In this document: positions 1-50,135 of the stretch, piece after piece | How positions within the stretch are numbered: the stretch's first letter is position 1 | Layout of the letters: the number at the start of each line of letters is the position of its first letter | Source of the DNA: Patescibacteria group bacterium | GTDB lineage: Bacteria > Patescibacteriota > Minisyncoccia > Phycocordibacterales > UBA2100 | DNA length: 64,000 nt | Direction of reading: 5' to 3' | Assembly: GCA_038064535.1 (NCBI GenBank) | Contig: JBBTSX010000009.1 | Span: forward strand, 1,603-65,602 | Made by a program: the position numbers and the translations under genes | The notes under the pieces: model-generated | Told to the model about the DNA's origin: nothing | Databases searched by the model: none | The model's input: the letters and a program-made list of their open reading frames with translations, nothing else

Positions 1-824
1 TGCGCAACAAGCTCAGGATGCATCAACACCTCCAGAATCTTTTCTGCGGGAATGATTATTGCGATACCCGTATTTATTTTGCTTTGGTCCTCTGAAGCAT
101 CGATATCTGCAGAATCGCTTTTTGCAGAATCAACACTCCAATGTCCGTGAATAAGACCTGCGAGGAACAGTCTAGTCCCACCCCCGAGAGACGTACCGGT
201 GCCAGTCAATTTGAAATAGGGTTCCTTAAAGAATACGGGCGAACCACTCAGTCCACCGATAGACCGCGCCTCAATTAAGTGTGCATCTATTTCTGCGTTG
301 TGCCACTTTACTGCGACCTTCTCGTTCTTATCGGTAGTAAGCAATGCAATATTCCCAACGCGCACAATTGGTAGATTTGCAAACTTGCCATGATGCTGTG
401 AAAAAAGACCTACAATCACTGCCTCGTTTGCAACTTGCACGTCACCCTTCTCAATATTCTCCGGTTTTAGAAACAACGAAGTCGGTACTGTTCTGTGAGC
501 GTGCTCTATTGTTCCAAGCGGGAAAGGAATTACCGCAACATCCACATCTGAATCGCTCGGGTGCGTGTACCACTTGGAGCCCTTCATAACATAGTCGAGT
601 CGGCCTCCATCTTTTCCATTCAAACGAACGCTTATATTGTCCAAATTCTCATTTTCGAGGTTGTGTAGTGCGGTGACGAGGTAGATAAAATTCAACTGGT
701 TTTCATTATCGGGAACGCTCACAAAGAAACCTGTACCCTGTGGCGTATATATCTCTTTACCGTTAACAACCTTTTTCTCGCAAAGAAATACCACACATTG
801 ACGGATATTGTCGGGGATTTCCAT
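1..824 (-). pseudogene. Trypsin-like serine protease (S1/Trypsin_2-type), N-terminal part. The gene runs off the window start. The frame is interrupted by two in-frame TGA codons at 450-452 and 441-443.
   Basis: Hand translation of the minus strand from ATG at 824 gives MEIPDNIRQCVVFLCEKK...GTGFFV...YLVTALHNL (His box) ...TSFVVSKTGEY, then TGA, EG, TGA. The same frame stays open to position 1 and encodes ...GVIVGLFSQHHGK...SIGGLSGSPVFF (Ser box GxSGSPV). It is absent from the supplied ORF track. Confidence 0.5.
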
Positions 825-1017
825 GGTCGCCTCACAGTATGCTCATTGGCACGCAAATCAAGCGGTTGCGGGTGAAAATAGTCAATTTGTTATAATGGGA
901 CATATGGCCAAACAACCCAAGAATACAATTTGCCTCTGGTATGAAAAAGATTGACGTCGCCGCTATAGAGGCCGCGTGCCGCGGGTAAGGAGCGGTTTTT
1001 TTGTGATGTGATACCGC

Positions 1018-1818
1018 TCAAAGCTTCCTGTGTTTTTTGAGTAACGTGTCTATTTTTTCGAGCACTTCTCGTAGCGTGAAATTCGCTTTAACGAGGAAAT
1101 CGTCCGCGCCGAGCTCGCGTGCGTCCGCGATCTCCTGTTCCTGACCGAGGTTCGAGAAAATAATCACGATAACGTCCTTGAATCGTTCCTCGGCCCTGAT
1201 TTTTTTGAGCAGATCGAAACCGTTCATGCCCGGCATAATCATATCCAGTAGCACCAGGTCCGGCGTGCGTTTTTGGATGAGCTGCCAGCCTTGCTCTCCG
1301 TCTAGCGCCGAACTAACGGTGTAGCCTTCCTGCGCGATGCGAGTCGTGGCAAGGGACGAGAGAAACGAGTCGTCTTCAACGACGAGAATATGTATCTTCT
1401 TGCGAGCGGATGGTGTACCGGCATCCGTCTCCGGCGTCTGGTCGGCCGAAAGGTATTTATGCATTTTAGATAACACCTCGTCGGGGCTGAACTGGGCTTT
1501 CACGATGTAATCTTTGGCCCCGAGCGCCAAGATGCGCTCGATTTCTACCGGCTGGCCGGAATTTGAAATCACAATGACCGGTATCTTCTTCAGCTCGTCG
1601 TCCTTGCTGATATCCTCTAGCACCTCGTACCCATCCTTTTTCGGCATAACGATATCAAGCAGGATGAGATCGGGCTTGAATTCGCGCACAGCTACGAGCC
1701 CCGCTTGACCATCGAGCTCCCACTTCGCATCGAAGCCCTGGCTACTGAGTTTAGCGAAGAGGATTTCCCCGAGAATTTTCTCGTCCTCAATAAGGAGTAC
1801 TCTTTTTCGTTGTTGCAT
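1018..1818 (-). CDS. Response regulator with two tandem receiver (REC) domains and no output domain
   Basis: Two CheY-like REC modules (LLIEDE...DLILLDIVMP and ILVVEDD...DLVLLDMIMPGMNG...LGADDFLVK). Stop is TGA at 1018-1020, 48 nt downstream of the kinase gene. Confidence 0.85.
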   Translation of the reverse strand: MQQRKRVLLIEDEKILGEILFAKLSSQGFDAKWELDGQAGLVAVREFKPDLILLDIVMPKKDGYEVLEDISKDDELKKIPVIVISNSGQPVEIERILALGAKDYIVKAQFSPDEVLSKMHKYLSADQTPETDAGTPSARKKIHILVVEDDSFLSSLATTRIAQEGYTVSSALDGEQGWQLIQKRTPDLVLLDMIMPGMNGFDLLKKIRAEERFKDVIVIIFSNLGQEQEIADARELGADDFLVKANFTLREVLEKIDTLLKKHRKL

Positions 1819-1865
1819 GAAAGTGTGAGGTGGGGTGGTGTAGCGCTAAGTGTAATACAGATTCA

Positions 1866-3566
1866 TCATGTGCGCGCGGGGTTTGTGGACACCGGGATCG
1901 TAAAGGTGAACGTCGTGCCTTTGCCCTCTTCACTCTCAAAGGTGAGACGCCCTCCGTGCTTTTCGACAATGCTCTTCGCGATAAACAGTCCGAGGCCCGA
2001 TCCGTCTGTTTGTTGCCTCGCCGCATTGTCGGCGCGGAAGAATTTATTAAAGATACTCGATTGCTGGCGTTGGGGAATCCCGATGCCGGTGTCGGTAACG
2101 TTGACTTTCACCATATGGTCGGTCGCACTTGCGCTCAGCCGTATCGAGCCACCCTCGAGTGTATACTGGGCGGAATTTTCGATGAGATTTTGGATGACGT
2201 TACGTATCTGCTCGGAATCGGCTGATATGAACGGTAAGCGCTCTTTCGGCGGATCAAAGGTAAGAGCGATCTTCCGCACATGCGCCTGACTGGCGAAATC
2301 GAGCACCGTGCTCTCGATGAGGTCCTCAATGTGAATGGGGGCAAACGCAAGACGAATCTTGCCCGACTCAATACGAGTCACGACAAGCATTTCATTGATG
2401 AGTTTCAGCATGCGCTCATTACTTTCAAAGCCTTTCATGAGCAGACTTCGTTGCTGAGGGGTAAGATTCTGGGACTGTTCGTCGATGAGAATTCCGAGTG
2501 TCCACTTGATTGCTGAAAGCGGAGTGCGAAGCTGGTGCGCGGCAACCGAGATGAATTCCGATTTTATTTTGTCGAGTTCTTGGAGGCGCGTATTTTTCTC
2601 TAGCAGGTCGATTCCTTGGGCGCTGAGTCGATCGTTGAGCACCGCCTGATGCCAATAGCTCCAGAGTGCGACGATAATAGCAAAGAGTCCGAGTATGAAG
2701 ATGGCGACGGCTAGCCATGTGACGACCGTCGCTTCCCTCAATGCTTCCGACTGCGGCCGCTCTACGAAAAGGCCCCAATTCGCGATTGGTATCGGAATTC
2801 CCACCGCAAACATGCGCACGCCGCGGTCATCTGCGTAAGAATCTTCAGTAGCGAGTCCGTCCACCGCTTGTCCATCCACCGCGACCTTTTGCACTATGGG
2901 CCGATTGAGCAGGTTGTGTCCCCCCGCGGCACGAGAGGAATCGGGATCCAGTATCTCGAGACCTGCGTGGTCCGTGATGTACACCCGCCACGTGTCCGTC
3001 TTCGGCAGACCGACGATTTCCGTAAAGCGCTCCAAGTTGACGTCTACGGCGAGTACGGAGTGTATCCCGCTCGCGCGCACGATGGGAACCGTAACGACAG
3101 ACGTGGGCCTCCCGTCTTCATCTCTCGTTACGTCACCAAAACTCGAAGATCCTGCAAGTGCGAGGTATAACCCGGATAATTTCGAATAGTCTCGCATGTC
3201 GTCTTGGCCGGCATGGAGGTGCGAGCTGACCATCTCCGAACCGTAGTGTTCGACTACGGCGGCATGAGTGAATGATGGATTTCTTTGCAGAAGTCTGTCG
3301 ATAATCATCTTCGAACGATCGGGTTCCGCCTGCATATCCAAGGCAGCATCCTGAACTTTCGCCAGGACGGCTTCGAGTGATGTGCTGATGTCGGAACTTG
3401 CGTTTTCCGCGACCTGCATTGACAGTTCTGATGCGGACGAACGCACGCTTTTCTGCGTGGGAAGCAGCCACAAAAGATCCAGTAGGACCAGCCATAAAAG
3501 GAAGAATAAGAAAATGAAGACGGTACGTCTTCGCGAGAGAAACTCAACAAAAGCAAATATATCCAT
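1866..3566 (-). CDS. Sensor histidine kinase (N-terminal TM and periplasmic sensing region, HisKA and HATPase_c)
   Basis: H-box HQLRTPLSAI, plus N, G1 and G2 boxes (NLIENSAQY, DTGIGIP, GSGLGL). N-terminal hydrophobic segment FIFLFFLLWLVLL. Co-operonic with the SBP and RR genes. Confidence 0.9.
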   Translation of the reverse strand: MDIFAFVEFLSRRRTVFIFLFFLLWLVLLDLLWLLPTQKSVRSSASELSMQVAENASSDISTSLEAVLAKVQDAALDMQAEPDRSKMIIDRLLQRNPSFTHAAVVEHYGSEMVSSHLHAGQDDMRDYSKLSGLYLALAGSSSFGDVTRDEDGRPTSVVTVPIVRASGIHSVLAVDVNLERFTEIVGLPKTDTWRVYITDHAGLEILDPDSSRAAGGHNLLNRPIVQKVAVDGQAVDGLATEDSYADDRGVRMFAVGIPIPIANWGLFVERPQSEALREATVVTWLAVAIFILGLFAIIVALWSYWHQAVLNDRLSAQGIDLLEKNTRLQELDKIKSEFISVAAHQLRTPLSAIKWTLGILIDEQSQNLTPQQRSLLMKGFESNERMLKLINEMLVVTRIESGKIRLAFAPIHIEDLIESTVLDFASQAHVRKIALTFDPPKERLPFISADSEQIRNVIQNLIENSAQYTLEGGSIRLSASATDHMVKVNVTDTGIGIPQRQQSSIFNKFFRADNAARQQTDGSGLGLFIAKSIVEKHGGRLTFESEEGKGTTFTFTIPVSTNPART

Positions 3567-19822: not shown

Positions 19823-21199
19823 ATGTTTAGCAAACAAACAAAGTTACAACAAACATCCGGTTCGTTATCTAACGGGGTGAAGTTACCCGCGCATGTGTAC
19901 ATGGTAGGGGTTGGAGGTATCGGGATGTCCGCGCTTGCCCAGCTACTCAAACATCGTGGACACACAGTAGAAGGTTCTGACCGCGACGAATCCCCGACGA
20001 CGGAACTGCTCGCACACAAGGGCATATCGGTGACCATCGGGCACCTGCCTGCGCCTGCCGGCGCGAATGCAGGCGGGCAGGCTGGCGACCAGTGCAATAT
20101 TCCCGCCGACACGGAATTACTCATTTACAGCGATGCGGTGCCCTCGACCAATCGCGAACGCACGCGGGCGAAAGAGATGGGCATTCCGGAGATGTCGTAT
20201 TTCGAGGCGCTCGGAGAAGTTTCGGCCGGAGTGCAAACTGTTGCCGTTGCCGGCACGCACGGGAAGACCACGACGACCGGCATGCTTGCGGCGATATTGA
20301 AAGCGGCGGGGCGTGCGCCGACCGCAATTGTCGGCTCCATTGTTCAGGATTTTGGCTCCAATTTTCTTGCCGGTCGGGAGGACCTGTTCGTCGTGGAGGC
20401 GTGCGAGTATCGTGACCACATACTGAAGCTCAACCCGGAAATTCTCGTCATCACAAATATCGAACTCGACCACACTGATTATTTTCCGACCCTTGAATCT
20501 CTCATTGAGACGTTCCGCGCTGCGGTACGCAAGGTTCCACGCGAAGGTTTCATTATTACCGACCCGAATGGGGCCAACATTGCTGCGGCGCTTGATGGTG
20601 CGCAGGCCCGCATCATCGATTACACGCAGACCGACGTGCCGCCGCTTTCTCTCATCGGCGAGTTCAATCGTATGAACGCCCGAGCCGCTTCAGCTGCTGC
20701 TAGGGCCGTGTTCCCCGGTATTCCCGAAAGCGCGATACACGACACGCTCACCAATTTCCACGGCTCGTGGCGACGTTTCGAATACAAAGGCGAGACGCCA
20801 AGCGGCGCTTTGGTCTATGACGACTATGCGCATCATCCGACCGCGATGCGCAAGACGATAGAAGCGGCGCGCGAGAAATTCCCCGGCAAGAAAATCGTCG
20901 TCGCGTTCCATCCGCATCTCTACAGCCGTACGAAGTCGCTTCTCAATGAATTTGCCGCAGCACTCGCCAAGGCCGACAAGGCGATAGTCGTTCCCATATA
21001 TGCGGCACGCGAAGCCCCCGACCCCAGCGTCTCCAATCATATTCTCGCCGCGCTCGCGCGCTATCAGGGCGGCGATGTCTCGGCACTCGACGATTTCAGC
21101 GTCATCCGCGATGCGCTTCTCGAAGAAGATAAAAACTCGCTCATCATCACCATGGGTGCGGGAGATATCTACAAGGTCGCCGAACAAATCGCCGATTGA
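19823..21199 (+). CDS. murC: UDP-N-acetylmuramate--L-alanine ligase
   Basis: VHMVGVGGIGMSALA, VAVAGTHGKTTTTGM, ITNIELDHTDYF and DDYAHHPT are colinear with MurC. Confidence 0.9.
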   Translation: MFSKQTKLQQTSGSLSNGVKLPAHVYMVGVGGIGMSALAQLLKHRGHTVEGSDRDESPTTELLAHKGISVTIGHLPAPAGANAGGQAGDQCNIPADTELLIYSDAVPSTNRERTRAKEMGIPEMSYFEALGEVSAGVQTVAVAGTHGKTTTTGMLAAILKAAGRAPTAIVGSIVQDFGSNFLAGREDLFVVEACEYRDHILKLNPEILVITNIELDHTDYFPTLESLIETFRAAVRKVPREGFIITDPNGANIAAALDGAQARIIDYTQTDVPPLSLIGEFNRMNARAASAAARAVFPGIPESAIHDTLTNFHGSWRRFEYKGETPSGALVYDDYAHHPTAMRKTIEAAREKFPGKKIVVAFHPHLYSRTKSLLNEFAAALAKADKAIVVPIYAAREAPDPSVSNHILAALARYQGGDVSALDDFSVIRDALLEEDKNSLIITMGAGDIYKVAEQIAD

Positions 21200-21234: not shown

Positions 21235-21272
21235 GTACACTATAACAGGCCGACCGGCCTGTTATAGTGTAC
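21235..21272. repeat. 38-nt palindromic element, copy 1 (GTACACTATAACAGGCCG-AC-CGGCCTGTTATAGTGTAC)
   Basis: Near-perfect 16-bp arms. Each arm contains a TGTTATAGT-like extended -10 box facing outward. Related copies lie at 46950-46987 and 47551-47588. Confidence 0.7.
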
Positions 21273-21289
21273 TTATAAGGAGACGGTCT

Positions 21290-21349
21290 ATGGGAGGCGT
21301 TCATAACTCTTTACAGATGCGGCGCCTCGCTTTTTTTATACTCCAGTGA
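21290..21349 (+). CDS. Possible 19-codon upstream ORF/leader peptide (MGGVHNSLQMRRLAFFILQ) with canonical Shine-Dalgarno
   Basis: AAGGAG at 21277-21282 lies 7 nt before ATG 21290. The stop is 15 nt before the rsmI start. It is followed by GCGGCGCC and a T7 run. Confidence 0.25.
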   Translation: MGGVHNSLQMRRLAFFILQ

Positions 21350-21364
21350 TAGCGTCTTCACTAT

Positions 21365-22075
21365 ATGAGCGAAGTTTCGGACTATCCCCACGGCAGACTC
21401 TCTATTGTGGCTACGCCTATCGGCAATCTCGGCGATATGACGTTCCGGGGGCTCTGGACGCTCAAGGAGTGCACGGCTATTTATGCAGAGGATACGCGCG
21501 TGATTTCAAAACTCCTCACACACTACGGACTTCGTACGCCGGTTTTCCGCCTCGATGCGGCGACTGAGACGAAGAAAGCGGGGGAAGTAGTCGAGCGGCT
21601 TGAGCGCGGTGAGCACATTTCATACGTCTCGGACGCGGGTACACCGGGGATTTCCGACCCCGGTGCACGGCTTGTTGCCTATGTCCGTAAGCACCTACCG
21701 GAAGCGACAATAGAGGCGCTACCGGGCCCCTCATCGGTCGCGGCGGCTCTTTCGATTGCAGGAATTTCCGGCGATGCATTTACATTCCTCGGATTCTTGC
21801 CGCACAAAAAGGGCCGGCAGACCGCGCTCAAGAAAATCGCGGCGAGCGAATTTCCTGTCGTGCTTTTCGAATCCCCACACCGCATCATTAAGCTGATGGG
21901 GGAGTTAGAAGTTGCCGCACCGAAATGCAAAGTCACTATTGGGCGGGAACTGACGAAAATGCATGAAGAAGTGGTTGTGGGCTCGCCAAAAGAAGTTGCA
22001 GAAAGTCTTGAAAAAAGAAAAGCCGTCCGCGGCGAATTCGTCGTCATAATTCAGCCACTAGCCACTAGCCACTAG
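21365..22075 (+). CDS. rsmI: 16S rRNA (cytidine1402-2'-O)-methyltransferase
   Basis: IVATPIGNLGDMT, AEDTR, VSDAGTPGISDPG, LPGPSS, GFLP and RELTK are colinear with E. coli RsmI (tetrapyrrole-methylase fold). Confidence 0.88.
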   Translation: MSEVSDYPHGRLSIVATPIGNLGDMTFRGLWTLKECTAIYAEDTRVISKLLTHYGLRTPVFRLDAATETKKAGEVVERLERGEHISYVSDAGTPGISDPGARLVAYVRKHLPEATIEALPGPSSVAAALSIAGISGDAFTFLGFLPHKKGRQTALKKIAASEFPVVLFESPHRIIKLMGELEVAAPKCKVTIGRELTKMHEEVVVGSPKEVAESLEKRKAVRGEFVVIIQPLATSH

Positions 22076-30853: not shown

Positions 30854-30936
30854 CGCACATCGCTCGGATACACATGGATGCCACCAAATCCTTAATCATT
30901 CGCCATGGTGACGGGATAAGGATATACCAAGATGGA

Positions 30937-31515
30937 CTACAAGAGGTTGAAGTGTTTTTTAATCCACGCATCATGTTCGATACTTTCAACGACCACATAC
31001 AATACGTCTTTCCCGATGCGCAGATCCGCTTTGATGAGCGCTATGAGTTCTTCGCAGTCATACGGATATACCCACACACTGTTTTGTAGTCGCAGGAAAC
31101 CATATTCGCGCATGAGTCTCCTCAATCGGTCACGTGTACTCCTCCGGTACTGAGGCACATCAAACATGACGAGCCGGTATCGCTTATCCCATCGCGGCGC
31201 GCGCCTGTGTCGGTGTAAGGCCTTTGCTGTTTCAAGTATGAGCGCGCGCCTACCTTTTTCTGTGATTGTGGCGTAGCGGATTCCGCCACGCTCGACGAAA
31301 CGCAGAAGACCCTTCTTGGCGAGTCGTCCCGAAGCCGTTCTTGCCCGATACCCGAGCTTGTATTTGTCGCCCATGATACGGGGGAGTACTCGAAAGATAT
31401 TCGGAGCGATCATGGTGACGGCGAGAATACCCGCGATGCCAACAGCTCCGAGTACGGCGCTTTGTATGTTCCGTTTCCTCCTGCGCATTCGCGCTTCCGA
31501 TTCTACCAGCCCCAT
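30937..31515 (-). CDS. PaaX-like transcriptional regulator (N-terminal wHTH-like region plus PaaX_C/Cas2-like C-terminal domain)
   Basis: C-domain DKRYRLVMFDVPQYRRSTRDRLRRLMREYGFLRLQNSVWVYP matches the W-DGRW...D(I/V)PE...LQ.SVW pattern. Paralog of 46977-47546. The track start at 31656 is an N-terminal over-extension; the homologous start MGLVESE is at 31515. Confidence 0.6.
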   Translation of the reverse strand: MGLVESEARMRRRKRNIQSAVLGAVGIAGILAVTMIAPNIFRVLPRIMGDKYKLGYRARTASGRLAKKGLLRFVERGGIRYATITEKGRRALILETAKALHRHRRAPRWDKRYRLVMFDVPQYRRSTRDRLRRLMREYGFLRLQNSVWVYPYDCEELIALIKADLRIGKDVLYVVVESIEHDAWIKKHFNLL

Positions 31516-31554
31516 ATCCCTAATGGTACACCATGGCGCAGAGATAGGGATATG
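31513..31554. promoter_or_regulatory. 10-bp inverted repeat CATATCCCTA-N22-TAGGGATATG at the PaaX-like start, in the divergent promoter region
   Basis: Perfect IR arms at 31513-31522 and 31545-31554. Confidence 0.35.
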
Positions 31555-31624
31555 GGCGGATGGGAGATGGTACGGAGCGTGTGTTCTTGCAGGAATCGGG
31601 AAAAGCGGCAATAATGCGCGCACC

Positions 31625-32542
31625 ATGGGACATAAAGCTGGGAACACGGCACTCATCGGATTCGTCGGTCAGGGATTTATCGGCAAGAGCTACGCCGATG
31701 ACTTGGAAAAACGCGGTTATGCGGTTGTGCGATATTCACTCGAAGAGCCGTACAGAGCAAATAAGCACAAGATAGCGGAGTGCGGCATTGTCTTTATCGC
31801 CGTGCCCACGCCGACGACGCCGAAAGGATTTGATTACTCGATCATCCGCGGTTCGCTCGGGCTCGTAAAGCCGGGAGCAAGTGTCGTAATCAAATCTACG
31901 TTACTGCCGGGGACGACCGTCGTACTGCAAAAAGCATTTCCGAAACTCTTCATTATGCATTCGCCGGAATTTCTCGTCGCGAGAAATGCACGCGCCGACG
32001 CGAGTAAGCCGTCCCGCAATATCATCGGTATTCCGAAAAAGTCGGCCTCCTATACCAAACGTGCGCGGGAGATTTTGAAAATTCTACCGAAGGCACCGTT
32101 TGCGCTGGTGTGTTCCTCCGAAGAGGCCGAGATCATCAAGTATGCCGGCAATGCGATGCTGTATCTCAAAGTGCTGTTCGCCAACATGCTCTACGACACG
32201 GCGCGCGGGGCGGGGGCTGATTACGAGGTTATACGGGCCGCCATCGGGGCAGACCCCCGCATTGGGCCGTCGCACCTGCAGGTCGTCCATGACAGCGGGC
32301 ACAAAGGCGCCAAGAAAGGCCGCGGTGCAGGCGGACTGTGCTTCATCAAGGATGTCGCAGCGTTCACAGATTTTTACAGCGCACTCACGGGTGACGAGTA
32401 CGGAGAGGCTTGGTTCAGGGCGGCAATGCGCATGAACGCGAATCTTCTGACGAGCACCGGTAAGGATCTCGACTTACTCCAAGGGGTGCACGGCAAATCG
32501 TTCGTGACGCGGTTTCGTAAGAAGAAACACACAAAAAGATGA
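31625..32542 (+). CDS. UDP-glucose/GDP-mannose dehydrogenase family protein (short form)
   Basis: N-terminal Rossmann ALIGFVGQGFIGKS, IAVPTP, KSTLLPGTT, catalytic Cys in GAGGLCFIKDV. The first in-frame start after the divergent PaaX-like start is ATG 31625. Confidence 0.75.
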   Translation: MGHKAGNTALIGFVGQGFIGKSYADDLEKRGYAVVRYSLEEPYRANKHKIAECGIVFIAVPTPTTPKGFDYSIIRGSLGLVKPGASVVIKSTLLPGTTVVLQKAFPKLFIMHSPEFLVARNARADASKPSRNIIGIPKKSASYTKRAREILKILPKAPFALVCSSEEAEIIKYAGNAMLYLKVLFANMLYDTARGAGADYEVIRAAIGADPRIGPSHLQVVHDSGHKGAKKGRGAGGLCFIKDVAAFTDFYSALTGDEYGEAWFRAAMRMNANLLTSTGKDLDLLQGVHGKSFVTRFRKKKHTKR

Positions 32543-32554
32543 TGTCACGATGTC

Positions 32555-33601
32555 ATGAGGCTTCTCATTGTCACGCAGACGGTCGACAAAAACAGCCAGG
32601 TGCTGGGTTTTTTCCACAGGTGGATCGGGGAGTTCGCAAAACAGTTCGAAAGCATCTCGGTCATTTGCCTTTTTGAAGGGGAACATTCATTGCCCGCGAA
32701 CGTGCGGGTATATTCACTCGGCAAGGAATCAATGTCGGGAAAAAGTATGATATATCATACTTTTTCCCGGCGGATCTCGTATGTGGTCCGTTTCTGGAAG
32801 CTCATCTGGCACCTGCGGCGTGAGTACGATTCCGTGCTTGTTCACATGAATCAGGAGTATGTATTGCTCGGCGTATTCCCGTGGAAACTCATGCGCAAAC
32901 GTATCTACCTGTGGCGCAATCACTACGCAGGCTCTCTGTTCACCCGTCTCGCCGTCGCGTTCTCGCACAAAGTCTTCTGCACGTCGAAGCATTCCTATAC
33001 CGCCCGTTTCAAAAAAACGGTGCTGATGCCCGTCGGCATTGATACCGATGTGTTCAACGAAGACCCGCAGATGCCGCGTGACGCGCGCTCTATTCTCTCG
33101 CTAGGCCGCATCGCACCGTCGAAGCACGTCGATGTTCTCATCGAAGCGCTGCACCTGCTTTCGCGCAGGACTTCCTTCACCGCGGACATATACGGAGATG
33201 CGCTCCCGCAGGACGCCGGATATCTGGAGAAACTGAAGTGCATGGTCGCCGACTACGGACTCGGGAAAAGCGTCATCTTTCACGGCGGCGTCGCAAATCA
33301 CGCGACGCCTGCCGTGTACCGGAGCCATCGTATATTCGTGAACACGTCACAGAGCGGCATGTACGACAAGACCATTTTCGAAGCGGCGGCCTGCGGCTGT
33401 ACCGTCCTCGCTTCGAGCCGTGATTTTGCGGAACTTTTTGGAGCCGGAGGTTATTTTGCGGAAGGAAATAGTGAGGAGTTGGCGCATAAACTTGAGGGGT
33501 ATCTCACGGCGGAGACTTCGGCGGGTGAGAGATACCGCGGCATCGTCTCGAGCCACAGCTTGCGGGAGCTCGGGAAAGCGCTCGCCGAAAGAATGATGTA
33601 A
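32555..33601 (+). CDS. Glycosyltransferase family 4
   Basis: MRLLIVTQ..., C-domain FEAAACGCTVLAS. Confidence 0.8.
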   Translation: MRLLIVTQTVDKNSQVLGFFHRWIGEFAKQFESISVICLFEGEHSLPANVRVYSLGKESMSGKSMIYHTFSRRISYVVRFWKLIWHLRREYDSVLVHMNQEYVLLGVFPWKLMRKRIYLWRNHYAGSLFTRLAVAFSHKVFCTSKHSYTARFKKTVLMPVGIDTDVFNEDPQMPRDARSILSLGRIAPSKHVDVLIEALHLLSRRTSFTADIYGDALPQDAGYLEKLKCMVADYGLGKSVIFHGGVANHATPAVYRSHRIFVNTSQSGMYDKTIFEAAACGCTVLASSRDFAELFGAGGYFAEGNSEELAHKLEGYLTAETSAGERYRGIVSSHSLRELGKALAERMM

Positions 33602-46949: not shown

Positions 46950-46987
46950 GTACACTATAAGAAGCCGGTCGGCCGCTTATAATGTAC
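46950..46987. repeat. 38-nt palindromic element, copy 2, overlapping the stop codon of the PaaX-like gene
   Basis: GTACACTATAAGAAGCCGGTCGGCCGCTTATAATGTAC. The gene's last codons STL and its TAA stop are encoded by the right arm. Confidence 0.7.
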
Positions 46988-47546
46988 TCTCTTTTAGACC
47001 GAAATGCCGGCGAAGACGCAGGTCGTTCTCAATGCTGTCAGCGATGATATAGAGAACTTCTCTGCCGAGACGATAATCTGCCTTGAGAAGAACGAGGATT
47101 TCCTCGGAGTCGAACGGGTGGACCCACACACTATCTTGTAATTTGACATACCCTATTTGAAATAGGGTGTCGCGCAGTCGCTGTCGCAATAATCGCTTTG
47201 ACTCTGGGATATCAAAAATGACGATGCGCCACCTGCCATCCCATTTGGTTGATTTGGGTGTTGAGCCCATTCGTGTTGCCAAAAAGACTTTGCCACGCTC
47301 CGTGAGTTGAATAAATCGCTTCCCAGACTTGGTCTCAACTGTAATGAGCCCGGCTCGTATCAAACGGCCAACGGCACCGCGCGCACTGTTTATATTCTTT
47401 TTAGTGATAGCTCTCCCTAATACTGAAAGGGTGTTGGGTGCAAGTGCGGTGAGAGCAATAATGCCGCCCAGTTGCAGAGTCGTAAGGATTGCTTCCCGTA
47501 TTTTCGTCCTACGCAACCTTCTCGCAGAGTCTTTTTCAATGCTCAT
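46977..47546 (-). CDS. PaaX-like transcriptional regulator, paralog 2
   Basis: WDGRWRIVIFDIPESKRLLRQRLRDTLFQIGYVKLQDSVWVHP (PaaX_C pattern). About 45% identical to 30937-31515. Confidence 0.6.
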   Translation of the reverse strand: MSIEKDSARRLRRTKIREAILTTLQLGGIIALTALAPNTLSVLGRAITKKNINSARGAVGRLIRAGLITVETKSGKRFIQLTERGKVFLATRMGSTPKSTKWDGRWRIVIFDIPESKRLLRQRLRDTLFQIGYVKLQDSVWVHPFDSEEILVLLKADYRLGREVLYIIADSIENDLRLRRHFGLKESTL

Positions 47547-47550
47547 TCCG

Positions 47551-47588
47551 GTACATTATAACAGGCCGGTCGGCTCGTTATAATGTAC
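47551..47588. repeat. 38-nt palindromic element, copy 3, immediately upstream of the PaaX-like start codon
   Basis: GTACATTATAACAGGCCGGTCGGCTCGTTATAATGTAC. On the gene's strand it reads TGTTATAATGTAC-cgga-ATG, i.e. an extended -10 box 8 nt before the start. Confidence 0.7.
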
Positions 47589-47626: not shown

Positions 47627-48298
47627 GTGTGGGATACTATTTCGCATATGCAAGACGCCGGAGGGTCGGGCACCGTTAGTCGTTTCGTCAAAATATGGCG
47701 CCGCGTCCGCTGGCCGCTCGGTATCATTGTGATTGTATATATCGCCCTCGTCATCTTGCGCATTCCTGCGGTGCTGGAGCAACGGCGGACGGCGGAAACA
47801 GTCGACAGGATTCATGCGCAAAGGCTCACGCTCGAAAATGTCGACGGCAAACATCTCCCGCCGCCGCCCGACCCTGCGCAAGTAGACGCGACGATTGAGG
47901 GTGTGGATGCAAACGCAAACGGCATTCGCGACGACGTGGAGCTCGCGATTTTCGAGAAGTATCCCAGCTCCCCGTATACCCGTGCGGCCGAACTGCAGTA
48001 TGCAATGGCGCTACAGATGTATTTGACCGAGGTTTTCAACTCGGAGACGTGGGTTGCGGTAGCAATTCGTTCGGGAAAAGGCTATGGCTGTCTATACGAC
48101 ACGGTACCGAGAGTGAAACTGTCGGATAGTGACGAAGTAATACAACAGACTTTTGAAATAGTCCAAAAACGAATTGATGAAACGGAAAATCTAGTTTTCA
48201 ACACATCAAAGCGAAAGCATGTATACGATGAGGTAAACAGAAAGTTTACAACATCTTTTGGTGGGTCAGCGGACAAAAGCTGCGACTTATCATTGTAG
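47627..48298 (+). CDS. Hypothetical membrane-anchored protein
   Basis: N-terminal TM WPLGIIVIVYIALVILRIPAVL. Otherwise no recognizable motif. Confidence 0.4.
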   Translation: MWDTISHMQDAGGSGTVSRFVKIWRRVRWPLGIIVIVYIALVILRIPAVLEQRRTAETVDRIHAQRLTLENVDGKHLPPPPDPAQVDATIEGVDANANGIRDDVELAIFEKYPSSPYTRAAELQYAMALQMYLTEVFNSETWVAVAIRSGKGYGCLYDTVPRVKLSDSDEVIQQTFEIVQKRIDETENLVFNTSKRKHVYDEVNRKFTTSFGGSADKSCDLSL

Positions 48299-48308
48299 AC
48301 ATCAAGCC

Positions 48309-50135
48309 ATGAGGAAGGTTTTTGTTTTTATCTTGCTCATCGTTTTTCTACCGAACGGAGTGATGGCATTGGGCTGCTCACTAAACGGGTATTCTGTGGT
48401 TTTCGTGAATGGAGTTTTAAACGATCAAGAAAAAGCGCAGGTTGGTAAGGCTGCATTGGAGGAAAAGTATAAGTTTCTTTCAAAGCGGAATGATGTTTCC
48501 TTTTATTTAGGACACAATCAATCGCACATTGCGGGGCTAGGCGACTTTGCTCAGTCTGTCGGACAGATTTTTGATAACCCGATTTCGTACTACGACCGAG
48601 ATACGATTCTTCGGGAAATGCATTCGAAGATTACAACTCGAAAGGTGCTGCTGGTCGGGCATTCGCAAGGCACGTTTTATACAAACGAGATATATAGCTA
48701 CTTAGTCGAGCACGGAGTACCGAGAGAATCAGTCGCCGTCTACAACCTCGCTACACCGGCGAGCCGCGTCGCGGGAGAGGGTGGCTACCTCACGTCCGCG
48801 AACGACCAACTCGTACTGCGAGTCCGGCAATACGCCGCAGCAGCAGGAGCCCCGGAGCCTTTGCAATCGAACATCCTTATTCCGATACGTGCTGAAGAGT
48901 CAACAAAATTATTCGGTGGGCACTCATTTAGCGGTGCTTATCTAACAGGAGCCGCCGCGAGAATCGTAGGAGATATCGAAAAAGCGCTCTCCGAGCTCAG
49001 AGCGTCGGAAGTATCTGAGTCCGATGGTTGTTTCACTCCACCTTCGGCGACGGTGACCTACAAAGTCCAAAAGCTTGGATTTGCCGCACTGGACCCGCTG
49101 GCCAACAAGAGCGTCAACGCCGCCGCGGGGACAGGGAAGGCGATTGCCGCCGCTACGCAAAAAGCATATGCCGCCGCCGCGGCTCTTGCCCGGACCATCA
49201 AGAGCGCGGTTGCCAACTTTACAGGAAACACTCAAGTGAGCGCGGCAACACAAGGCGCCGCGGCGGCGTCGGCACTGCCGGCGAGTCCGTCTCCCGTGCC
49301 CCGGGCGGCGGTCTCCGCCAACACCGCGCCGCCCACCGCTTTGGTAGTAGCTCCGGCTCCGCCTGTTCCCAATCCGCCAACGCCTACGCAGACTGAACCG
49401 CAGCCAATCCCACCGCCGGCACCTGCTCCCGCGGCAATACCCGCGCCCTCGCTTTTTCCCATTTCACCAGGCTTTGGCGGCGACGGCGGGGCCTCGGCCC
49501 CGAGTGTAGCGGCTGAGGTCGAAGAGCCGCAACCGGCGCCGGTCGTTTTTGTGCCCTTGGCGGTCACCGCGCCGGCCGATGCTTCGCTCTTCGTCACCTC
49601 GTCGGTCACAGTTGCCGGCACCACGACTCCTGGTTTGCTCGTCGTGTTTTCATATGGGACAGATACTGCCAGCACGACCGCCGACACGAACGGAGACTGG
49701 TCGGCAGTCCTCGTGCTTCCGGAAGGAGCGACGGCGCTGGGGATCGTCGCATCGGACGCCGACGGCAACACCTCCGATGCATTGACGCGCAGTATCACCA
49801 TCGACACGACGGCACCTGCTACGCCCGTGTCGGCCATTACCGAATGCGCCGCGTTCGGCTCCGGCTACTGCGAGATAGCGACCACGACGGTGAACGTGTC
49901 ATGGAGCCCCATCGCAGACGCTATCTATTACGCGCTCACAAAAGACGCAGCAGTCACCGCAACCACCACGGCAACGAGTGTGCAGTTTGTTATCGACAAC
50001 AATGCCACGACGACCTTTTCCGTCGCGGCATACGACATGATTGGTAACGGCGCAACGTCGACCGATGTAAGTGTGTACGTGCACATTCCCGCGCCCCCGC
50101 CGCCACCGTTACCTCCTCCGCCCATGATGATGTGA
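48309..50135 (+). CDS. Secreted alpha/beta-hydrolase (cutinase/lipase-like GHSQG nucleophile elbow) with Ala/Pro-rich linker and C-terminal Ig-like/beta-sandwich repeats
   Basis: Signal MRKVFVFILLIVFLPNGVMA. VLLVGHSQGT resembles the cutinase GYSQG. Long A/P-rich region, T-rich beta-strand repeats and a poly-Pro tail. Confidence 0.55.
   Translation: MRKVFVFILLIVFLPNGVMALGCSLNGYSVVFVNGVLNDQEKAQVGKAALEEKYKFLSKRNDVSFYLGHNQSHIAGLGDFAQSVGQIFDNPISYYDRDTILREMHSKITTRKVLLVGHSQGTFYTNEIYSYLVEHGVPRESVAVYNLATPASRVAGEGGYLTSANDQLVLRVRQYAAAAGAPEPLQSNILIPIRAEESTKLFGGHSFSGAYLTGAAARIVGDIEKALSELRASEVSESDGCFTPPSATVTYKVQKLGFAALDPLANKSVNAAAGTGKAIAAATQKAYAAAAALARTIKSAVANFTGNTQVSAATQGAAAASALPASPSPVPRAAVSANTAPPTALVVAPAPPVPNPPTPTQTEPQPIPPPAPAPAAIPAPSLFPISPGFGGDGGASAPSVAAEVEEPQPAPVVFVPLAVTAPADASLFVTSSVTVAGTTTPGLLVVFSYGTDTASTTADTNGDWSAVLVLPEGATALGIVASDADGNTSDALTRSITIDTTAPATPVSAITECAAFGSGYCEIATTTVNVSWSPIADAIYYALTKDAAVTATTTATSVQFVIDNNATTTFSVAAYDMIGNGATSTDVSVYVHIPAPPPPPLPPPPMMM

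Follow-up and report, generated by a model that had tools for sequence, protein, structure and literature searches.

What do two copies of one palindrome do for the short regulator gene that lies between them? The question is raised by a 64-kb stretch of a Patescibacteria genome (hereafter the window), from an ultra-small, Kaiserbacteria-like bacterium of Hainich groundwater, in which a gene for a PaaX-like protein (gene A) is bracketed by two copies of a 38-nucleotide (nt) palindrome and a third copy lies elsewhere. Comparison with distant relatives showed that the bracket is a family trait and not a local oddity, and that site, gene and site form a conserved unit. We consider it probable, from sequence comparison, that the palindromes are the protein's own operators, of which the upstream one would serve autorepression and the downstream one would act as an auxiliary site.

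The Bracketed Genes of the Window

A degenerate consensus of the palindrome, allowing at most three mismatches, matched the window exactly three times and had no match in 100 dinucleotide-preserving shuffles (0/100). These are precisely the three copies, with the same coordinates and sequences, that a first-pass annotation of the window had reported. Copy 1 is a perfect 19+19 inverted repeat except for its central dinucleotide, whereas the arms pair at 16/19 positions in copy 3 and at 15/19 in copy 2. Copy 3 had been placed 4 nt before the ATG of a PaaX-like gene and copy 2 over the stop codon of the same gene; both placements can be read directly in the sequence, and the product of the gene matches the Pfam family PaaX_M (PF20803, "PaaX central Cas2-like domain") over residues 100–173 with an E-value of 8e-21. 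Copy 1 does lie between murC and rsmI, as had been stated, being flanked by a Mur ligase gene (19823–21199) and rsmI (21365–22075). The −10 boxes that the same annotation saw in the arms were confirmed as far as the hexamer goes, since TATAAT or TATAGT occurs in all six arms of the three copies, but the extended −10 "TG" is found in only three of the six (both arms of copy 1 and the gene-facing arm of copy 3). On the strand of the gene, the sequence from copy 3 to the start codon is TGTTATAAT-GTACCGGA-ATG.

The window also holds a second bracketed gene, which the first-pass annotation had not spotted (cassette B, 30887–31552). Its gene B, a paralog of gene A, is divergent from a UDP-glucose dehydrogenase-like gene (31622–32542). 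The arms of its two palindromes read TATCC(C/T)TA...CCATGG...TA(A/G)GGAT(A/T) across both copies, a type that differs from the A type and is present twice in the window.

The Site–Gene–Site Layout Across the Family

The first distant homologs (48–58% identity) were flanked by two palindromes of 34–48 nt that were alike within each locus and unlike the A-type element of the window. With 80 further loci added, the survey covered 85 non-redundant homologs (37–58% identity) and ~780 kb of loci. We scored a core-centered 38-nt palindrome within 100 nt upstream of the gene and within ~100 nt downstream of it (86 genes for the downstream side), and used random 105-nt windows from the same loci as a control. 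The palindrome was present upstream of 73/85 genes (86%), downstream of 69/86 (80%), and on both sides of 61/85 (72%), versus 27 of 980 random windows (2.8%), which is an enrichment of ~30-fold at the regulator gene. The two copies at one gene share on average 31 of 38 bases, compared with 15.5 of 38 between genes. A common REP-like (repetitive extragenic palindromic) repeat scattered at random, which had been named as the outcome that would overturn the first-pass interpretation, is not what the window contains: there are three A-type copies in 64 kb, two of which flank a gene. The related suggestion of a small regulator cassette with the palindromes as its terminal repeats is apt as a description, given the conserved layout, but no sign of cassette mobility was found.

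Throughout the family the regulator was a stand-alone unit, with a median spacer of 110–160 nt to each neighbor. Its upstream neighbors were co-directional in 43 cases and divergent in 22, and its downstream neighbors convergent in 40 and co-directional in 32. Three independent short-read contigs (L005, L006, and L008) begin 34 nt upstream of the ATG, within the upstream palindrome; these starts most likely reflect a break of the de Bruijn graph at the palindrome and call for caution when such loci are assembled. In L095 (17728–18456), two near-identical 44-nt palindromes with a CTATAG core lie 685 bp apart with repeated downstream flanks and no convincing open reading frame (ORF) between them.

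The Upstream Copy and the Promoter

A TANNNT hexamer ended 5–9 nt (mostly 6–8 nt) before the ATG in 64 of the 85 family genes, and a motif like the Shine–Dalgarno (SD) sequence was found in 8 of the 85. In the same loci, 570 other long ORFs, for which start calls are crude, had a −10-like hexamer at 5–9 nt in 28% of cases and an SD-like motif in 10%. From the −10-to-ATG spacing and the scarcity of SD motifs, the regulator genes are predicted to be leaderless; the mRNA of gene A is probably leaderless or nearly so, and the numbers suggest that leaderless initiation is common in these genomes of the Candidate Phyla Radiation (CPR).

The end of the palindrome fell at −4 to +10 nt relative to the ATG in 43 genes, which have a TANNNT 6–8 nt upstream of the start codon. 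In 29 of the 43 the palindrome touches or overlaps the ATG, so that the −10 hexamer falls inside the proximal arm, as it does in copy 3. For most of the remaining genes the palindrome ended 13–45 nt upstream of the ATG, a placement that would cover the −35 and spacer region. Sites over the −10 box or over the −35 and spacer are classic repressor positions. The coordinates of both cassettes and of the associated features are collected in Table 1.

Table 1. Features of the two bracketed cassettes and associated elements in the 64-kb window.
Feature	Position	Strand	Remarks
Cassette A upstream palindrome (copy 3)	47551..47588		4 nt from ATG; faces divergent operon; overlaps −10 box; putative primary operator
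Extended −10, TGTTATAAT	47555..47563	−	Gene-proximal arm of copy 3; TATAAT ends 8 nt before ATG
Gene A, 189 amino acids (aa), winged helix plus PaaX_M/Cas2-like	46977..47546	−	No PaaX C-terminal domain
Cassette A downstream palindrome (copy 2)	46950..46987		Covers final four codons and TAA stop; putative auxiliary operator
Orphan A-type palindrome (copy 1)	21235..21272		Perfect; murC–rsmI intergenic; candidate extra binding site
Divergent two-gene unit, 216-aa membrane-anchored and 625-aa secreted protein	47648..50135	+	From gene calls
Gene B, 192-aa paralog, 38% identity to gene A	30937..31515	−	PaaX_M E 3e-17; CRISPR_Cas2 26.9 bits (cutoff 23.8)
Cassette B upstream palindrome, TATCCCTA...CCATGG...TAGGGATA	31515..31552		Final base is the A of ATG
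Cassette B downstream palindrome	30887..30924		12 nt past stop; arm type and CCATGG core as in upstream copy

Anatomy of the 38-bp Site

Site anatomy, its conservation, and its co-variation with the protein were observed directly. Length and register were constant at 38 bp across the family. The center was always the hexamer C-N-R-Y-N'-G, with CGRYCG as the commonest class, CTATAG next, and CCATGG rare; GT, AC, GC, and AT were all found as the central dinucleotide, and this R-Y degeneracy is two-fold symmetric only on duplex DNA. Core classes are interspersed among close relatives, yet they never differ between the two copies at one gene (61/61 identical). Among CGRYCG centers there is a mild, mirror-image bias, AC over GT upstream (21 vs. 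11) and GT over AC downstream (25 vs. 12). Complementarity of the arms was ~1.0 in the core, fell to 0.53–0.72 at positions 5–10 from the dyad, and rose again to 0.81–0.97 at positions 11–18. Such bipartite symmetry points to a dimer that would read the outer half-sites and the dyad, since a stem selected for pairing would be uniformly complementary.

The same measurements speak to an action at the level of RNA, in which hairpins in the transcript would serve as terminators, as 5' or 3' stabilizers, or as processing sites that free a monocistronic mRNA. This we regard as unlikely. A-type copies do fold very stably as RNA (−23 to −33 kcal/mol, z −6 to −11), copy 1 fits a terminator pattern on the minus strand, and the sites lie at the edges of stand-alone transcription units, tRNA genes included. 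However, no gene ends on that strand at copy 1, copies 2 and 3 have no U-tract and no terminator was called at either, and the B-type downstream copy shows no gain in folding stability over shuffled sequence (z −1.0). Positions 5–10 of a supposed stem are the poorly complementary ones given above, and mismatches on the sense strand show no excess of G.U over A.C (57 vs. 54 upstream, 64 vs. 47 downstream). From this mismatch pattern and the folding of the B-type copy, hairpin formation is not the conserved property, and the first-pass proposals of a hairpin terminator or an insulator are not supported at the RNA level, on the same grounds together with the uneven complementarity and the missing U-tract. 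An upstream hairpin would, moreover, not be transcribed if the −10 box lies inside its arm, and Rfam gave no match in positions 20000–49000 at E ≤ 1. A variable triplet in the A-type copies (positions 12–14) was symmetric in 3/7 cases versus ~28% expected by a hand estimate; the difference is not significant and was not used as evidence on hairpins.

Outer arms, by contrast with the shared center, track the protein tree and form clades, among them TATCC..., TGTTGYTT..., ATGTACTTA..., and GTATGAA..., and paralogs within one genome differ in arm type (A and B in the window; also L022 and L046). After entropy correction, the protein columns most informative on the outer half-site bases were reference positions 50, 51, 53, 54, and 57, at the start of the predicted recognition helix (H49-64). 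Finding four of the top five reference-mapped columns in this helix has p ~0.003 by our own hypergeometric estimate, which shared ancestry confounds.

These observations also bear on whether another factor binds the palindromes, or whether they are generic promoter or insulator punctuation, their link to the PaaX-like gene being incidental to its stand-alone position. In favor of such a factor, the central hexamer is common to all lineages, and family-type palindromes also flank other units, namely tRNA-Leu (L076, 1002–1450), tRNA-Tyr (L059, 3367–4349), a RelE-like toxin–antitoxin pair (L039), and a gene for a 216-aa protein (L060). We nevertheless think it improbable, because paralogs of one genome each have their own arm type, the types follow the PaaX-like phylogeny, co-variation peaks in the recognition helix of that very protein, and the enrichment at its gene is ~30-fold. 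The units in L060, L076, and L039 carry the arm type of the adjacent regulator, which fits a local regulon.

The Downstream Copy

The downstream copy lies between 15 nt inside the coding region and a few tens of nt past the stop codon (median ~9 nt), overlapping the 3' end of the coding sequence in 16 of 69 cases, and the centers of the two copies are a median of 641 bp apart. It is not an intrinsic terminator, given that a U-tract is absent, and we rejected it as a promoter of the next gene in view of the variable orientation of that neighbor. It is nonetheless under selection, being symmetric at the presumed contact positions and keeping the core class of its upstream partner. Our best guess is an auxiliary operator that would act by looping or as a roadblock; a protein-mediated insulator is possible.

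Orphan Copies and Stability of the Cassette

Family-type palindromes away from a regulator gene numbered one in the window, two in a 139-kb contig of a Kaiserbacteria genome, and 20 in the ~780 kb of loci. Nineteen of these 20 are intergenic, in DNA that is ~89% coding. The Kaiserbacteria element is of the A type and lies each time between co-directional genes, and A-type outer arms with a different interior were found in a Saccharibacteria contig. A presence/absence test at the Kaiserbacteria uvrB–kinase junction was dropped, as the kinase homolog of the window has another upstream neighbor and the two places are not comparable.

The orphan of the window is not ancestral. In a relative with 86%-identical RsmI the murC–rsmI gap is 9 nt and no element occurs within 20 kb; in another, with 92%-identical RsmI, the promoter-like segment next to rsmI is kept and the palindrome is absent. 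Directly after copy 1 (21280–21364) the window has an AAGGAG that makes a good ribosome-binding site, an ORF of 19 codons (ATG at 21291), and then GCGGCGCCTCGCTTTTTTTATACT. The same GCGGCGCCTCGCTTTTTTTATACT is kept upstream of rsmI in a palindrome-less relative (L103, 121–150), and the segment that contains it is probably the gene's own promoter or leader.

Cassette A itself was compared with its relatives. In a strain whose protein is 94% identical, the palindromes on both sides and the divergent gene are retained, but the downstream neighbor differs. The breakpoint lies 68 nt beyond the downstream palindrome, not at it, and so marks a strain-specific break in the glycan gene cluster just outside the cassette. 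The segment 46882–46949, the ~68 nt past the downstream copy, is conserved in L010 (1459–1526), where the next gene is an epimerase and not a methyltransferase. In L016 the divergent pair (47 and 43% identity) adjoins a 57%-identical ortholog, downstream synteny is shared in three other relatives, and all contigs that span the upstream side show the same upstream neighbor in the same orientation.

A selfish system remains to be weighed here, one in which the bracketed winged helix-turn-helix (wHTH) and Cas2-like protein, as a nuclease, would recognize, nick, and disperse or maintain REP-like palindromes, leaving orphans as dispersal products. REP-associated tyrosine transposases (RAYTs) do likewise for the REPs that flank them, in units called REPtrons. 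Several observations would fit: palindromes of the gene's own type lie on either side of it and recur in intergenic DNA, the orphan is missing at orthologous junctions, several copies with repeated flanks are clustered locally in L039, the core class of the two copies at a gene evolves in concert, and Cas2 models match every member aligned, with an invariant aspartate. We still give this account little credence. The protein has neither a HUH/Tyr transposase domain nor a HUH motif, copies are few (three A-type and two B-type in 64 kb), the symmetry is bipartite and not stem-like with length fixed at 38 bp, and the upstream copy sits with precision over promoter and ATG; relatives that share part of the cassette's synteny and a strain breakpoint away from the palindrome tell against it as well. 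The L039 locus (800–3100) contains five copies of one type (TAGCAATAAYTMTGCTATAGCA...), some in ~200-nt repeated modules, around the PaaX-like gene and the RelE-like toxin–antitoxin pair, the latter being flanked by short hairpins (CTTCAAGGTCGAACCTTGAAG) as well.

The Winged-Helix and Cas2-Like Protein

The protein of gene A is a member of the PaaX_M superfamily that lacks what marks a true PaaX, a regulator of phenylacetate catabolism that responds to phenylacetyl-CoA. It stops at residue 189 with no match to the PaaX_C domain, scores 44.8 bits against the NCBIfam PaaX equivalog TIGR02277 (cutoff 264.55; all 26 members tested fell under it), and has no genes for paa functions or aryl-CoA metabolism within ±10 kb, where the gene list holds glycosyltransferases, methyltransferases, and surface proteins. 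Cas2 models, in turn, were matched by 26/26 aligned members, with only the N-terminal half of the Cas2 profile aligning (positions 2–47). Gene A reaches 27.4 bits against TIGR01573 cas2 (cutoff 24.5) and stays under the PF09827 cutoff of 23.8 with 15.8 bits, while gene B exceeds it (Table 1). The context of a CRISPR Cas2 is missing from the gene lists of the window locus and the homolog loci examined, which contain no Cas1 or other Cas families. No regularly spaced repeat array appeared in the inverted-repeat scan of the window or the palindrome scan of the loci, although no dedicated direct- or tandem-repeat search of the window was made. Labeling these genes as CRISPR Cas2 is thus likely a mis-annotation; in public annotation the family is mostly called "Cas2" or "PaaX." At its operator the protein would behave as PaaX does, without being a PaaX.

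In an AlphaFold model (predicted local distance difference test score 73) the protein has an N-terminal winged helix, with helices at residues 3–27, 32–42, and 49–64 and a β-hairpin wing at 68–81, followed by a β-α-β-β-α-β domain at residues 106–169. The nearest solved structure is Escherichia coli PaaX (PDB 8A39). The family motif is FDIPE..R..LR..L..GF.RLQ.SVW, in which the Asp at the end of β-1 (D112, in FDIPE) is invariant in the alignment. More than 1000 homologs of ~190 aa were found, those named all being Patescibacteria/CPR, and a full profile search at E ≤ 1e-30 gave 574 clusters at 50% identity. Domain searches and the alignment revealed no HUH motif, HUH/Tyr transposase, or recombinase domain in the gene A protein, and PHROGs gave no meaningful phage-family match.

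It seems quite unlikely that the protein, besides repressing, nicks or processes the flanking palindromes through a Cas2-type site as a self-contained, repeat-associated nuclease cassette. If it did, the cassette would be a non-HUH analogue of the REPtron or a relative of the repeat-recognizing ancestry of CRISPR adaptation modules, and the concerted evolution of flanking copies and the dispersal of orphans would be products of the nuclease activity. A site-specific recombination cassette, with two lox-like sites that permit excision or inversion of the regulator gene, is highly unlikely: arms around a 6-bp core with an asymmetric center do resemble recombinase core sites, as does the mild mirror-image bias of that center, but the protein has no recombinase domain, core orientation is mixed (17 direct vs. 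11 inverted), and no inverted or excised cassette occurred in the contigs sampled.

A Proposed Mechanism

Among the readings that the first-pass annotation had offered, an autoregulatory operator over the −10 box is the one best supported by the comparative data, namely conservation at the promoter, arms that track clades, PaaX-like geometry, and dimer-type symmetry. We propose that a dimeric winged-helix/Cas2-like regulator of the PaaX family binds the bracketing 38-bp sites as double-stranded DNA. The recognition helix of each monomer would read one outer 8-bp half-site, 11–18 bp from the dyad, and the central hexamer would be read symmetrically at the dyad. Protein bound at the upstream site, which spans the −10 box and the beginning of a predicted leaderless promoter, would repress its own synthesis, and by way of the mirror-image arm of this site it probably controls the divergent operon as well. 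The auxiliary operator would be the downstream site, which occupies the first non-coding position past a short gene. It would most likely act either by looping co-operatively with the upstream site or as a protein roadblock that would insulate a weakly expressed, leaderless gene from neighboring transcription. The murC–rsmI orphan may be an additional, evolutionarily recent target site.

The divergent unit for the 216-aa and 625-aa proteins is likely a co-regulated target of the upstream site. A "lipase-like" label for the 625-aa protein was dropped, having no Pfam support, and this protein gave no BLAST match to the α/β-hydrolase-like divergent gene of L018. Elsewhere in the window, a perfect 17+17 palindrome that is not of the family type (left half CGGGAAAAAGTATGATA, right half TATCATACTTTTTCCCG; 32736–32769) lies apparently within a 348-aa ORF (32555–33601, + strand).

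Several points weigh against the operator model. A generic sigma-70 scan called no promoter at the palindromes, owing to the lack of a −35 match, and the promoter assignment therefore rests on the −10-to-ATG distance statistics. Site–protein co-variation is confounded by shared ancestry, and no residue was found to separate the CGRYCG, CTATAG, and CCATGG classes (the top mutual information was 0.54 vs. 0.45 in the permutation null, in a variable linker). An operator right after the stop codon is atypical for autoregulated repressors, and helical phasing between the two copies is weak (R 0.23 at a 10.5-bp period, p ~0.02 uncorrected, with three periods tried). The palindromes of L039 and L095 carry longer repeated flanks and look more repeat-like than operator-like, and the absence of the orphan at orthologous junctions fits a mobile repeat as well as it fits a fast-changing regulon. 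The invariant Cas2-type Asp keeps a catalytic role conceivable. Finally, that the protein binds and represses, that transcripts start without a leader, and what the downstream copy does are all deduced from sequence patterns.

Comparison With Known Systems

To our knowledge, almost nothing is known of transcriptional regulation in Patescibacteria, a largely uncultured group whose members encode very few regulators. In the present family, each member can be matched to a predicted 38-bp site, to a promoter predicted to be leaderless and autoregulated, and to a second site conserved at the 3' end of the gene. This yields protein–site pairs, including orthogonal paralogs from one genome, that can be tested without culturing. 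Our literature searches turned up no publication that connects PaaX to Patescibacteria or to Cas2, and a site–gene–site layout across distant relatives seems not to have been described before.

The closest parallel is the PaaX repressor of E. coli and Pseudomonas. E. coli PaaX has the operator TGATTC(N27)GAATCA and, by blocking access of RNA polymerase to the Px promoter, represses its own expression (PMC9493321). Both the winged helix and the Cas2-like PaaX_M domain at the center are homologous, and the short inverted repeats that end the ~39-bp PaaX site match the geometry of the 38-bp site here, where binding is predicted. The present family differs in protein length (189 vs. ~316 aa), in having no PaaX_C domain and no paa genes nearby, in the conserved central hexamer, the second copy at the 3' end of the gene, and the apparently leaderless promoter, and in being confined, as sampled, to Patescibacteria/CPR metagenomes.

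Auxiliary operators that act with DNA looping are represented by lac O1/O2 and gal OE/OI. As in those systems, a few hundred bp would separate an operator on the promoter from a like one downstream; in this family, however, the second site is just beyond or overlapping the 3' end of the regulator's own gene, family-wide, and looping is conjectural, with weak phasing. The likeness to REP/RAYT systems lies in flanking palindromes of the gene's own type, extra intergenic copies, and paralog-specific repeat types, whereas the protein is not a HUH/Y1 transposase, copies per 64 kb are few, and the sites combine bipartite symmetry with overlap of a promoter by the upstream copy.

With Cas2 and CRISPR the family shares a C-terminal domain that matches Cas2 models and associated repeats that are partly palindromic and ~38 bp long. 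It differs in having only two repeats, with the gene itself as the "spacer," in the fusion of the domain to a winged helix, and in gene lists without cas1, other cas genes, or a repeat array at the loci examined. The comparison raises the question of why a DNA-binding, repeat-flanked protein keeps a Cas2-type domain with its conserved Asp.

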